Shown here one piece after another: positions 30,201-35,006 of a DNA stretch of 64,000 nucleotides. The stretch is from NCBI RefSeq assembly GCF_013167455.1, contig NZ_CP038328.1; one strand, given 5' to 3'. Numbering within the stretch: the first letter of the stretch is position 1; every line of letters begins with the position of its first letter. Source of the DNA: Escherichia coli O157:H7. GTDB lineage: Bacteria > Pseudomonadota > Gammaproteobacteria > Enterobacterales > Enterobacteriaceae. Position numbers: made by a program.

Positions 30201-33200
30201 TCTTCCTTTCAGAGTGCTCCGCTTCTCACTATTATCTCACGCAGTATTCTTAAGGGAACGATAAGGAGGAACCATGAACATTACCCCGTTTCCGACGCTT
30301 TCGACGGCAACTATAGATGCCATAAATGTTATCGGACAGTGGCTGGCGCAGGATGATTTCTCCGGTGAGGTGCCGTATCAGGCTGATTGCGTCATACTTG
30401 CAGGAAATGCGGTTATGCCGACTATCGATGCGGCATGTAAGATTGCTCGCGATCAGCAAATTCCTTTACTGATTAGTGGTGGTATCGGTCACTCGACCAC
30501 TTTTTTGTATAGCGCCATCGCACAGCATCCGCACTACAACACTATCCGCACCACTGGCAGAGCAGAAGCGACCATCCTGGCGGATATCGCTCATCAGTTC
30601 TGGCATATTCCGCATGAAAAAATCTGGATTGAAGACCAGTCAACAAACTGCGGTGAAAACGCACGCTTTAGCATCGCGCTATTGAATCAGGCCGTAGAAC
30701 GAGTTCACACAGCTATCGTTGTACAGGACCCCACCATGCAGCGGCGCACGATGGCGACGTTCCGCCGTATGACCGGGGACAATCCCGATGTACCACGCTG
30801 GTTAAGTTATCCCGGATTCGTTCCTCAGTTAGGAAATAACGCAGACAGTGTAATCTTTATTAATCAGTTACAAGGATTATGGCCGGTTGAGCGTTATCTC
30901 TCACTACTCACTGGCGAGCTGCCGCGTTTACGCGATGATAGCGATGGCTACGGTCCCCGCGGGCGAGATTTTATCGTTCACGTTGATTTTCCGGCAGAAG
31001 TCATCCATGCATGGCAAACGCTGAAACACGATGCGGTGCTCATCGAGGCGATGGAAAGTCGCTCGTTACGTTAAAAATTGCCCGTTTGTGAACCACTTGT
31101 TTGCAAACGGGCATAACTCCTGCCTTTTATTTCTGCCTCTTATTCCTTTTACACTTGTTTTTATGAAGCCCTTCACAGAATTGTCCTTTCATGATGCCGT
31201 CTCTATGATGATTGATGTTAATTAACAATGTATTTGCCAAAAACAAACATATAAATCACAGGAGTCGCCCATGTCAGTACCCGTTCAACATCCTATGTAT
31301 ATTGATGGACAGTTTGTTACCTGGCGTGGAGACGCATGGATTGATGTGGTAAACCCTGCTACAGAGGCTGTCATTTCCCGCATTCCCGATGGTCAGGCCG
31401 AGGATGCCCGTAAGGCAATCGATGCAGCAGAACGTGCACAACCAGAATGGGAAGCGTTGCCTGCAATTGAACGCGCCAGTTGGTTGCGCAAAATCTCCGC
31501 CGGGATCCGCGAACGCGCCAGTGAAATCAGTGCGCTGATTGTTGAAGAAGGGGGCAAGATCCAGCAGCTGGCTGAAGTCGAAGTGGCTTTTACTGCCGAC
31601 TATATCGATTACATGGCGGAGTGGGCACGGCGTTACGAGGGCGAGATTATTCAAAGCGATCGTCCAGGAGAAAATATTCTTCTGTTTAAACGTGCGCTTG
31701 GTGTGACTACCGGCATTCTGCCGTGGAACTTCCCGTTCTTCCTCATTGCCCGCAAAATGGCTCCCGCTCTTTTGACTGGTAATACCATTGTCATTAAACC
31801 CAGTGAATTTACGCCAAACAATGCGATTGCATTCGCCAAAATCGTCGATGAAATAGGCCTTCCGCGCGGCGTGTTTAACCTTGTTCTGGGGCGTGGTGAA
31901 ACCGTTGGGCAAGAACTGGCGGGTAACCCAAAGGTCGCAATGGTCAGTATGACAGGCAGCGTCTCTGCAGGTGAGAAGATCATGGCGACTGCGGCGAAAA
32001 ACATCACCAAAGTGTGCCTGGAACTGGGGGGTAAAGCACCAGCTATCGTAATGGACGATGCCGATCTTGAACTGGCAGTCAAAGCCATCGTTGATTCACG
32101 CGTCATTAATAGTGGGCAAGTGTGTAACTGTGCAGAACGTGTTTATGTACAGAAAGGCATTTATGATCAGTTCGTCAATCGGCTGGGTGAAGCGATGCAG
32201 GCGGTTCAATTTGGTAACCCCGCTGAACGCAACGACATTGCGATGGGGCCGTTGATTAACGCCGCGGCGCTGGAAAGGGTCGAGCAAAAAGTGGCGCGCG
32301 CAGTAGAAGAAGGGGCGAGAGTGGCGTTGGGTGGCAAAGCGGTAGAGGGGAAAGGATATTATTATCCGCCGACATTGCTGCTGGATGTTCGCCAGGAAAT
32401 GTCGATTATGCATGAGGAAACCTTTGGCCCGGTTCTGCCGGTAGTCGCATTTGACACGCTGGAAGATGCTATCTCAATGGCTAATGACAGTGATTACGGC
32501 CTGACCTCATCAATCTATACCCAAAATCTGAACGTCGCGATGAAAGCCATTAAAGGGCTGAAGTTTGGTGAAACTTACATCAACCGTGAAAACTTCGAAG
32601 CTATGCAAGGCTTCCACGCCGGATGGCGTAAATCCGGTATTGGCGGCGCAGATGGTAAACATGGCCTGCATGAATATCTGCAGACCCAGGTGGTTTATTT
32701 ACAGTCTTAATGAGTGAAAGAGGCGGAGGTTTTTTCCTCCGCCTGTGCGCGTCAGAGTTTAGCGAATTTTTCGAGGGTGCGAATAAGCTGCGTGACGAAG
32801 CCATATTCGTTGTCGTACCAGGCGACCGTTTTCACCAGTTGTAAATCGCCCACGGCGGTAATTTCCGTTTGCGTGGCATCAAACACCGAACCGAAATGGC
32901 TGCCAATGATATCGGAAGAGACTATTTCTTCATCGGTATAACCAAATGACTCGTTATTGGTGGTTGCTTGTTTAAGTGCGTTATTCACCTCTTCGGCAGT
33001 CACTTTTTTTCCGAGAATCGATACCAGTTCAGTGACCGAACCTGTTTTCACCGGCACGCGTTGCGCATGACCTTTCAGTTTGCCGCTCAGTTCCGGGATC
33101 ACCAGACCAATGGCTTTTGCCGCGCCCGTAGTGTGGGGAATGATATTTTCTGCCGCGGCGCGTGAAGCACGTAAATCTTTACCACGCGGGCCATCCACCA

Positions 33201-35006
33201 GTGACTGGGTGCCAGTATAGGCATGAATGGTCGTCATCGTGCCGACTTCTATCCCGAAACTGTCATGCAAGGCTTTGGCCATCGGCGCAAGACAGTTAGT
33301 AGTGCATGATGCCACGGAAACAATGGTGTCGTTGCCATCCAGAGTGTCGTCATTGACTTTATAAACGATAGTTTTCATTTCACCTGCAGGGGCGGAAATC
33401 AACACCTTCTTCGCGCCAGCATCAAGATGCGCCTGCGATTTCTCGGCGGAGGTATAAAAGCCAGTACATTCGACAATGATTTCTGCACCTTTCGCTTTCC
33501 ACGGAATATTTTTAGCCTCTTTTTCGGCGTAAACCGCGATACTTTTCCCATCAACGATAAGTGAATCTTCCGTAAAATCAACGCTCCAGGGGAACGGACC
33601 ATAGTTTGAATCATGTTTCAGCAGATAGGCGAGAATTTTTGGGGAAGTAAGATCATTAATAGCGACAACGTCTATGTTGCTTTTGACTTCAAGTAATCGA
33701 CGCAACACCAGTCGACCGATACGACCAAAACCGTTAATACCAACTTTACTCATGGTTTTCTCCTGTCAGGAACGTTCGGATGAAAATTGATCCTTTCCAG
33801 GCTTAGACCAGGATGGCGGGATGGGCAATCTCCATTCTTACAGTGAAACGTAACGTACTGAAAAAGGGTGAACAATATTTAATGAAATTTTGAGAAAAGC
33901 CCGTTATGTTAACGGAAAATTATGTTAAAGCAGGAAATGTTATGGAAAATAAATACTCAAGGTTACAAATCAGCATTCACTGGCTGGTCTTTTTGCTGGT
34001 TATCGCAGCGTATTGCGCAATGGAGTTTCGGGGTTTCTTCCCACGTAGCGATCGGCCACTCATCAACATGATTCATGTTTCCTGCGGCATATCAATTCTC
34101 GTGCTGATGGTCGTTCGTCTTTTGTTAAGGCTGAAATACCCAACCCCGCCGATTATACCTAAGCCAAAACCGATGATGACGGGACTGGCGCATTTGGGAC
34201 ATTTGGTGATTTATCTCCTGTTTATTGCGCTGCCAGTGATTGGTTTGGTGATGATGTATAACCGAGGCAACCCGTGGTTTGCGTTTGGTTTGACGATGCC
34301 TTACGCTTCAGAGGCCAATTTCGAACGGGTAGATAGCTTAAAGTCGTGGCATGAAACGCTGGCGAATCTGGGATATTTTGTCATCGGTTTGCACGCTGCG
34401 GCTGCACTGGCACACCACTATTTCTGGAAGGACAACACACTTCTACGCATGATGCCGCGTAAACGTTCCTGAAGGATATTTAAAGAAAACGCCTGTACTA
34501 AAACCGACCCGTGGTACAGGCGAAGAATACGGGTCTACATCGGAAGCGCCTATTATATTTATTTGTATGACAAATAAAACCATAATCCTTGCCCATACGT
34601 CCATCTGGCTTATTTTTAATCAATTCACCCGATCTTTGATCTCATCAACGGTATCAAAATAAACCAGCGTATAACGTTCAAATCGAACATAAGATTCGAT
34701 AAACCATGGAGGTTATATGAAAAAACTGGCACTTATTTTGTTTATGGGAGCGCTTGTTTCCTTTTATGCCGATGCCGGGCGCAAACCCTGTTCTGGTTCG
34801 AAAGGGGGGATCTCACACTGTACGGCAGGCGGCAAATTTGTCTGTAATGATGGTTCTATTAGTGCATCGAAAAAAACATGCACTAACTGAAGTGTAAAAG
34901 GGGTGCCATGAGAAAATGAATCTGCTAGTCAGATGCGCGGGGAAAATCCCCGCGCTTGCCCTTACCTGGACGTGCAGGCCATGAGCGCAGCAACCTCCTT
35001 ATCACT

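Follow-up and report, generated by a model that had tools for sequence, protein, structure and literature searches.

In Escherichia coli K-12 the gapC gene is broken, and the question at this locus is whether the copy carried by E. coli O157:H7 encodes a second functional glyceraldehyde-3-phosphate dehydrogenase (GAPDH) beside the housekeeping enzyme GapA. We addressed it in a window of 64,000 nucleotides of E. coli O157:H7 (contig NZ_CP038328.1), which is the whole stretch of DNA that was analyzed.

The gapC reading frame is intact in E. coli O157:H7

The gapC gene was flanked by aldA, which is convergent with it, and by cybB, which is divergent, and the same order is found in K-12 and O157:H7.

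32752-33753, minus strand: coding sequence of gapC, with 333 codons and a TGA stop codon, for a type I NAD-dependent phosphorylating GAPDH (GapC)

The initial annotation had described this frame as uninterrupted and 333 aa long. The ORF listing of the window (ATG start, TGA end, 333 aa) and a re-translation with zero internal stops and zero frameshifts agreed on this point. The gene shared the aldA-gapC-cybB position and the nucleotide identity to other E. coli gapC genes (95% or more) that are expected of an orthologue, and matches over at least 80% of it were found in 5409 genomes with identities of 90-100%. E. coli O157:H7 chromosomes, in which the gene is annotated as intact, matched the window at 100% identity, and gapC itself was 100% identical to 'gap' (WP_000048659.1) of O157:H7. 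It had no detectable difference from, and is the same gene and locus as, the known GapC of O157:H7 (UniProt P58072; EDL933 Z2304, 333 aa), whose UniProt entry is cited in PMC10614358. The intact gapC of O157:H7 is already known and the broken K-12 copy is the exception; since this stands in the literature and databases, the observation is correct but is no discovery. Its importance goes little beyond correct annotation, K-12 being unrepresentative of the species at the gapC locus. Two plus-strand ORFs within gapC (75 aa and 65 aa) were taken as chance antisense ORFs.

The lesions of K-12 gapC and their spread

The initial annotation had also described K-12 gapC as a split pseudogene, and this was confirmed: MG1655 b4493 bears a pseudogene annotation, 'frameshifted; internal stop' is noted for it in a K-12-type genome, and an older K-12 annotation lists b1417 as 'gapC_1 ... 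interrupted' (PMC4512719). The K-12 pseudogene (b4493; formerly gapC_1 b1417 and gapC_2 b1416) occupies the orthologous locus with the same neighbours, is 98.3% identical to the window gene (17 differences in 1002 nt), and has a nearly identical upstream region. Base-by-base alignment placed the K-12 lesions at the following sites, and this realignment revealed neither a frameshift nor a stop in the window copy.

33637-33639, minus strand: codon 39, AAA (Lys), which is a TAA stop in K-12
33004-33010, minus strand: homopolymer of seven A (A7) in codons 248-250 (G-K-K), which is A6, a 1-bp deletion, in K-12

A further change in K-12 gapC is R18G, and orthologues do not vary at this residue.

As sequencing errors typically fall in homopolymers and the K-12 deletion sits in one, the open frame might be suspected to be a sequencing or assembly artefact of a gene that is truly frameshifted at A7. 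However, the gene was matched at 99% identity or more in 309 independent complete genomes and at 100% in several O157:H7 assemblies, a 72-mer of the window containing A7 was found exactly in 1425 genomes, and the 333-aa protein has been detected by mass spectrometry. An artefact is therefore extremely improbable.

To survey the lesions, short queries were searched against 5426 complete E. coli genomes. The K-12 59-mer with TAA was found exactly in 1152 genomes, the K-12 71-mer with A6 in 1045, and the other window-type lesion-site query in 367; these counts, like the 1425 for the window 72-mer, are lower bounds for particular haplotypes, because only exact matches reach the band of at least 99%. 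In a spread sample of 39 full-length gapC matches, 31, 6, and 2 were 1002, 1001, and 1000 bp long, respectively. Fourteen gapC alleles were inspected directly, and all 12 of the 12 sampled alleles spanning 1002 bp were intact and annotated as CDS. Other inactivations were also seen: strain OkiPb01697 carried an independent deletion of 2 bp, and late frameshifts led to 383-aa products. Since E. coli has inactivated the gene repeatedly, it is dispensable in some niches at least. Within this genome collection, which is enriched in K-12 laboratory derivatives, about one in five complete genomes carry the K-12 lesions, and the majority of the remainder appear intact. Intact gapC is the ancestral and majority state; the pseudogene of K-12 is derived and confined to certain lineages. 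Because the gene is intact in most E. coli, K-12-based metabolic models and arguments about gapA essentiality may not transfer exactly to other strains.

GapC has the architecture and catalytic residues of a type I GAPDH

GapC scored 445.2 bits with the NCBIfam profile TIGR01534 'type I GAPDH' (curated cut-off 367.2), with residues 3-325 covering profile positions 1-330 of 330. Pfam assigned PF00044 (Gp_dh_N) to residues 3-102 with an E-value of 2e-35 and PF02800 (Gp_dh_C) to residues 155-313 with an E-value of 1e-57, which gives the two-domain architecture of type I GAPDHs, an N-terminal NAD-binding Rossmann domain followed by a C-terminal catalytic domain. The initial annotation had also claimed an intact GxGxxG motif and catalytic Cys/His pair, and all of these were read in the translation.

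33715-33732, minus strand: codons 8-13, GFGRIG (G8-F-G10-R-I-G13), the GxGxxG dinucleotide-binding motif of the Rossmann fold, conserved with respect to GapA
33652-33654, minus strand: codon of Asp34, an acidic residue in AINDL
33304-33306, minus strand: codon of catalytic Cys150 in ASCTTNCL (residues 148-155), invariant in 108/108 sequences
33223-33225, minus strand: codon of catalytic His177 in IHAYT, invariant in 108/108 sequences

An acidic residue at the Asp34 position of GAPDHs confers a preference for NAD rather than NADP. GapC thus combined the GxGxxG motif and this NAD-preference residue with the ASCTTNCL active-site signature and the catalytic His, as GAPDHs do. The segments of the substrate and phosphate sites were all present and aligned with those of GapA, namely HAYTGTQ, TTGAAKA (208-214), QRVP (R232), and WYDNE (residue 312). 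GapA (b1779, P0A9B2/P0A9B4) is encoded in the same genome and has the fold, chemistry, and catalytic motifs in common with GapC at 46% identity.

A member of the GAPDH family could have another main substrate or role, either as an Epd/GapB-like erythrose-4-phosphate dehydrogenase or as an ArsJ-associated GAPDH in arsenate resistance. GapC did reach sizeable sub-threshold scores with the corresponding NCBIfam profiles, as is expected of any paralogue, but these were far under the curated cut-offs: 276 and 280 bits with TIGR01532 and NF010058 for Epd (cut-offs 530.6 and 539) and 306 bits with NF033735 for the ArsJ-associated enzyme (cut-off 450), while TIGR01534 was passed. Epd (GapB) is a superfamily paralogue to whose family GapC does not belong. 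No arsJ-like gene adjoins gapC, whose neighbours are aldA and cybB, and a near-identical enzyme turns over glyceraldehyde-3-phosphate (G3P) with a high kcat (PMC8615399). Another main substrate is thus largely refuted and has next to no chance of being correct.

A protein differing at one residue is an active GAPDH

The enzyme just mentioned, 'EcGAPDH1' (E. coli type 1 GAPDH; PDB 7C5F/7C5G/7C5H/7C7K and related entries; PMC8615399), shares 332 of 333 residues with the window GapC over the full length. The Cys150/His177 numbering is the same, and the single difference is an Asn at residue 132, where the window GapC has Lys. The crystallised sequence equals allele WP_000048667.1 of E. coli B and other strains, an identity that points to a strain of origin with the B-type allele. 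Wild-type EcGAPDH1 had a Km of 0.73 mM for G3P and a kcat of about 2.2e5 per min, with NADH formation as the assay readout; C150A abolished activity and H177A lowered it about 8000-fold (PMC8615399). GAPDH chemistry has been shown for the N132 enzyme and, by analogy, would extend to the K132 allele of the window. In this reaction, the canonical one of GAPDHs, the Cys150 thiolate attacks glyceraldehyde-3-phosphate, hydride passes to NAD+ with His177 as the base, and phosphate then cleaves the thioacyl-enzyme to give 1,3-bisphosphoglycerate.

gapC is selectively maintained, and its product is a minor protein

Among 12 intact E. coli gapC alleles, dN/dS was 0.037, with dS up to 0.22. Full-length orthologues (332-333 aa, 87-97% identity) were found in E. 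albertii, Citrobacter, Klebsiella, and Trabulsiella. Selection maintains the gene in the majority of E. coli, O157:H7 and strain B among them. The gapA gene was present in 5425 of the 5426 complete E. coli genomes and conserved at 99% or more in 5424, with no disruption seen in the survey, whereas gapC ranged from 90% to 100% identity and was repeatedly inactivated.

Expression data, which the initial annotation had proposed as a check, bore out that the protein is made. In lysates of O157:H7 strain 86-24, GapC (Z2304/P58072) was detected in 9 of 19 LC-MS/MS runs and was at zero in the other 10. The mean APEX value was 93 for GapC and 21358 for GapA, that is, GapC stood at about 0.4% of the GapA level, or ~230-fold less. 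Among the GAPDH isoenzymes of laboratory cultures, GapC is a very minor one. Two other O157:H7 omics data sets had no gapC entry in the supplementary files available.

The gene of environmental isolates is reportedly the subject of a study by Espinosa and Kolter, as cited in PMC1796617. According to a review passage, environmental isolates have an intact gapC that is expressed preferentially in fresh water, laboratory strains have a mutated one, and the K-12 promoter is still activated by the environment (PMC2949598). A gapC transcript has also been measured in EPEC (PMC6333774), and in published data the K-12 gapC_1 transcript was RpoS-dependent, its ratio in Table 2 of that work being 5.6-fold (RpoS column). 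Following this literature, GapC would be expressed weakly in rich laboratory medium and induced in an RpoS-dependent and fresh-water-associated manner.

The low protein level invites the reading that gapC, although intact, is physiologically negligible, a cryptic or decaying paralogue with no meaningful GAPDH flux whose open frame only means that inactivation is yet to come in this lineage. K-12 grows normally without gapC, independent inactivation recurs in E. coli, the K-12 lesions occupy about 20% of complete genomes, and GapC was ~230-fold below GapA and undetected in 10/19 runs, all of which would fit. However, a dN/dS of 0.037 over dS values up to 0.22 cannot be reconciled with neutral drift, the catalytic residues are invariant in 108 sequences, full-length orthologues are kept across several genera, the protein is detectably made, and the passage cited above reports environment-specific induction (PMC2949598). 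We therefore regard a negligible gapC as decidedly unlikely. The preferred reading, with a probability of roughly 0.9, is that the window gene is the intact gapC of O157:H7 and encodes a second, minor NAD-dependent phosphorylating GAPDH (EC 1.2.1.12) besides housekeeping GapA. The suggestion of a second functional GAPDH beside gapA is thus supported by the dN/dS value, the orthologues, the kinetics and structures of the N132 protein, the mass spectrometry of GapC, and the near-universal presence of gapA, provided that the K132 variant may be read through the N132 enzyme.

The physiological role of GapC and its possible aid to the environmental survival of a food- and water-borne pathogen are worthwhile questions that have long been raised in the literature.

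A substitution at residue 132 in the O157 lineage

The residue that separates the window GapC from EcGAPDH1 is encoded as follows.

33358-33360, minus strand: codon 132, AAA (Lys), an O157-lineage-specific substitution; Asn in all other sampled alleles and in the crystallised enzyme

Position 132 is variable, since orthologues carried N (82), H (24), or S (1) there. We speculate, at rather long odds, that N132K, specific to the O157 lineage, might change the properties of GapC, or that GapC might moonlight, with GapC serving as a condition-specific glycolytic isoenzyme (RpoS-dependent and induced by cold or fresh water) that aids the persistence of O157:H7 outside the host. The condition-specific part has already been proposed in the literature, and only the O157-specific twist would be new. 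If this were true, the K-12/ST10-like lineage, in losing gapC, would show that it has adapted to a life without an environmental phase.

Signals flanking gapC

The gene is monocistronic and has a strong Shine-Dalgarno sequence, and the following features were noted around it.

33759-33764, minus strand: Shine-Dalgarno sequence AGGAGA, its AGGAG core ending 6 nt upstream of the gapC ATG; identical in K-12
33754-33941, minus strand: divergent gapC-cybB intergenic region, holding the putative gapC promoter
32721-32744, no strand assigned: GC-rich hairpin with a 9-bp stem and a 6-nt loop, in the 41-bp gap between convergent aldA and gapC

The 207 nt upstream of the gapC ATG (33754-33960), which contain this intergenic region, had 4 differences from K-12. 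When 32600-34000 was scanned for sigma-70 promoters, a single weak minus-strand site came up (33948-33919), and because a lone weak site stands against 1.6 expected by chance, no gapC promoter is claimed from it. A consensus terminator scan of the same interval did not list the hairpin between aldA and gapC, because its stem is not followed by a clean T-run. The hairpin had a folding energy of -18.5 kcal/mol (z = -3.95), and 0 of 200 shuffled sequences folded as well; judged by this energy, it is likely a terminator shared by aldA and gapC.

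The gapC locus and its product

The gapC open reading frame comprises 333 codons from ATG to TGA, as found in the ORF listing and on re-translation, and it lies among the following features.

31271-32710 (+): aldA, convergent with gapC
32721-32744: GC-rich hairpin with a 9-bp stem, in the 41-bp gap between aldA and gapC
32752-33753 (-): gapC
33942-34472 (+): cybB, divergent from gapC

The gene is 100% identical to its counterpart in several complete E. coli O157:H7 chromosomes. In strain PV15-279, whose coordinates match those of the window one-to-one, it is annotated as 'gap, type I glyceraldehyde-3-phosphate dehydrogenase' (WP_000048659.1). 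By its sequence, the product is a textbook type I GAPDH: it scored 445.2 bits against the NCBIfam model TIGR01534 (curated cut-off 367.2) with the whole profile covered, and Pfam identified both the NAD-binding and the catalytic domain. GFGRIG occupies residues 8-13, and the sequence also contains Asp34, the ASCTTNCL signature including Cys150, WYDNE, the TGAAKA loop and His177; Cys150 and His177 are invariant in the 108 sequences compared. The coordinates, length and motifs in the initial annotation were thus borne out by the ORF, TIGR01534, Pfam and the motif reading. The possibility that GapC acts on a different substrate, as an erythrose-4-phosphate dehydrogenase or an ArsJ-associated GAPDH, was ruled out by scores below threshold for both models, by the gene neighbourhood and by the published kinetics of the Asn132 enzyme EcGAPDH1, the crystallised E. 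coli type 1 GAPDH.

A Shine-Dalgarno sequence, AGGAGA, lies directly 5ʹ of gapC, with 6 nt between the end of its AGGAG core and the ATG. The hairpin, with a folding energy of -18.5 kcal/mol (z = -3.95), is probably a terminator shared by aldA and gapC. A simple promoter scan around gapC was uninformative. The longest cybB ORF starts at 33906 (33906-34472, +; 188 aa); the RefSeq annotation of O157:H7, like that of K-12, begins the gene at 33942 (176 aa), so that the gapC-cybB intergenic region is 188 bp, not 152 bp.

Lesions in the K-12 allele

The initial annotation described gapC as a split pseudogene in K-12, and both the MG1655 annotation and the alignment agreed. At the same locus, b4493 is annotated as a pseudogene; the PGAP note in a K-12-type genome reads 'frameshifted; internal stop', and an older K-12 annotation has 'gapC_1, interrupted' (PMC4512719). 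The two alleles differ at 17 of 1002 nt, comprising 13 synonymous differences, two amino-acid differences (R18G and K132N) and two lesions, both in K-12, while the window frame is uninterrupted. Codon 39 is TAA in K-12 and AAA in the window, and the A7 run at window 33004-33010 (gene nt 744-750) is one base shorter in K-12. Residue 18 (window 33700-33702) sits in the GRIGRLVLR segment and is Arg in 108/108 sequences (orthologues and the window protein); since it is invariant, R18G in K-12 is consistent with relaxed constraint once gapC had been inactivated.

Distribution of intact and broken alleles

Judging from genome counts, spans and inspected alleles, intact gapC is the majority state in E. 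coli. The gene was present in 5417 of 5426 complete genomes. The K-12 59-mer with TAA matched exactly in 1152 of these and the 71-mer with A6 in 1045, about one fifth of a collection that is rich in laboratory K-12 derivatives. Among 39 evenly spaced full-length matches, the span was 1002 bp in 31, 1001 bp in six and 1000 bp in two. Fourteen alleles were inspected, and all 12 with a 1002-bp span, including those of E. coli B, Nissle 1917, one APEC and river, lake and mollusc isolates, were intact and annotated as coding sequences. An assembly artefact as the source of the open frame is excluded, as hundreds of assemblies agree and GapC has been detected by mass spectrometry. Full-length orthologues (87-97% identity) occur in E. 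albertii, Citrobacter, Trabulsiella and Klebsiella, indicating that the intact gene is ancestral.

The K-12 lesions were also found in strains ETEC1702 and 13C1065T, and in OkiPb01697 the gene has independently lost 2 bp, nt 131-132. Strain 13C1065T has an additional 1-bp deletion at gene nt 988. Several gapC products in public databases are 383 aa long, parting from the window protein after residue 308, 324, 328 or 329 and then sharing one alternative tail. This pattern indicates independent late -1 frameshifts with readthrough past the terminator region into aldA antisense; some of these late-frameshift cases may be sequencing errors.

Evidence that GapC functions

The suggestion that gapC encodes a second functional GAPDH alongside gapA is supported by selection, enzyme kinetics, proteome detection and the presence of gapA itself (5425/5426 genomes; 46% protein identity between GapA and GapC). 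Mean dN/dS was 0.037 over the 12 intact alleles, with dS from the window allele of up to 0.22. EcGAPDH1 (PDB 7C5F, 7C5G, 7C5H, 7C7K and others), whose sequence is that of the E. coli B-type allele, shares 332 of 333 residues with the window protein, the sole difference being Asn in place of Lys at residue 132. This position is N, H or S among orthologues, so the K132 substitution is unlikely to matter. EcGAPDH1 has a Km of 0.73 mM for glyceraldehyde-3-phosphate and a kcat of ~2.2e5 per min; C150A abolished activity, and C150S and H177A lowered it ~10^4-fold (PMC8615399). As for expression, shotgun proteomics of O157:H7 strain 86-24 gave GapC (Z2304, P58072, 333 aa) a non-zero APEX abundance value in 9 of 19 runs (mean 93), compared with a mean of 21358 for GapA. 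A published study of EPEC measured a gapC transcript, at a reduced level in a csrA mutant (PMC6333774). For the gapC_1 transcript of K-12, the RpoS column of a published Table 2 (glucose-limited chemostat) lists a ratio of 5.6-fold.

That an intact GapC is physiologically negligible has some support from its low abundance and the recurrent inactivation of the gene; the gene is, on the other side, under strong purifying selection and kept across genera, and its protein is detectable, all of which speaks against this reading. The gapC finding is correct and already documented. A review (PMC2949598) describes the gene as undisrupted in isolates from the environment, with expression favoured in fresh water, and as carrying mutations in laboratory strains; a 2007 review, which cites the same source, credits gapC with an adaptive function for survival in water.

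Other loci in the window

Rfam matches were RydC, an sRNA directly 3ʹ of cybB (34483-34546, -; 92.5 bits), and sok, the antitoxin RNA belonging to the type I toxin-antitoxin locus hokB/sokB (35106-35257, -; 111.5 bits). Between hrpA and ydcF, four consecutive small ORFs (28470-30158, +; 141, 112, 143 and 125 aa), each carrying the annotation 'hypothetical protein', form an accessory islet that K-12 MG1655 lacks. They gave no NCBIfam or PADLOC match; the only PHROG match, of the fourth ORF, was weak and to a family without an assigned function. Of the 5426 complete E. coli genomes, 585 carry the segment at a coverage of 80% or more. Two large adjoining coding sequences look like one autotransporter gene in two pieces.

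9650-12685 (+): annotated 'proline-rich domain-containing protein'
12905-15364 (+): annotated 'autotransporter outer membrane beta-barrel domain-containing protein'

This pair (9650-15364) corresponds to the ydbA region, which is disrupted in K-12 as well.
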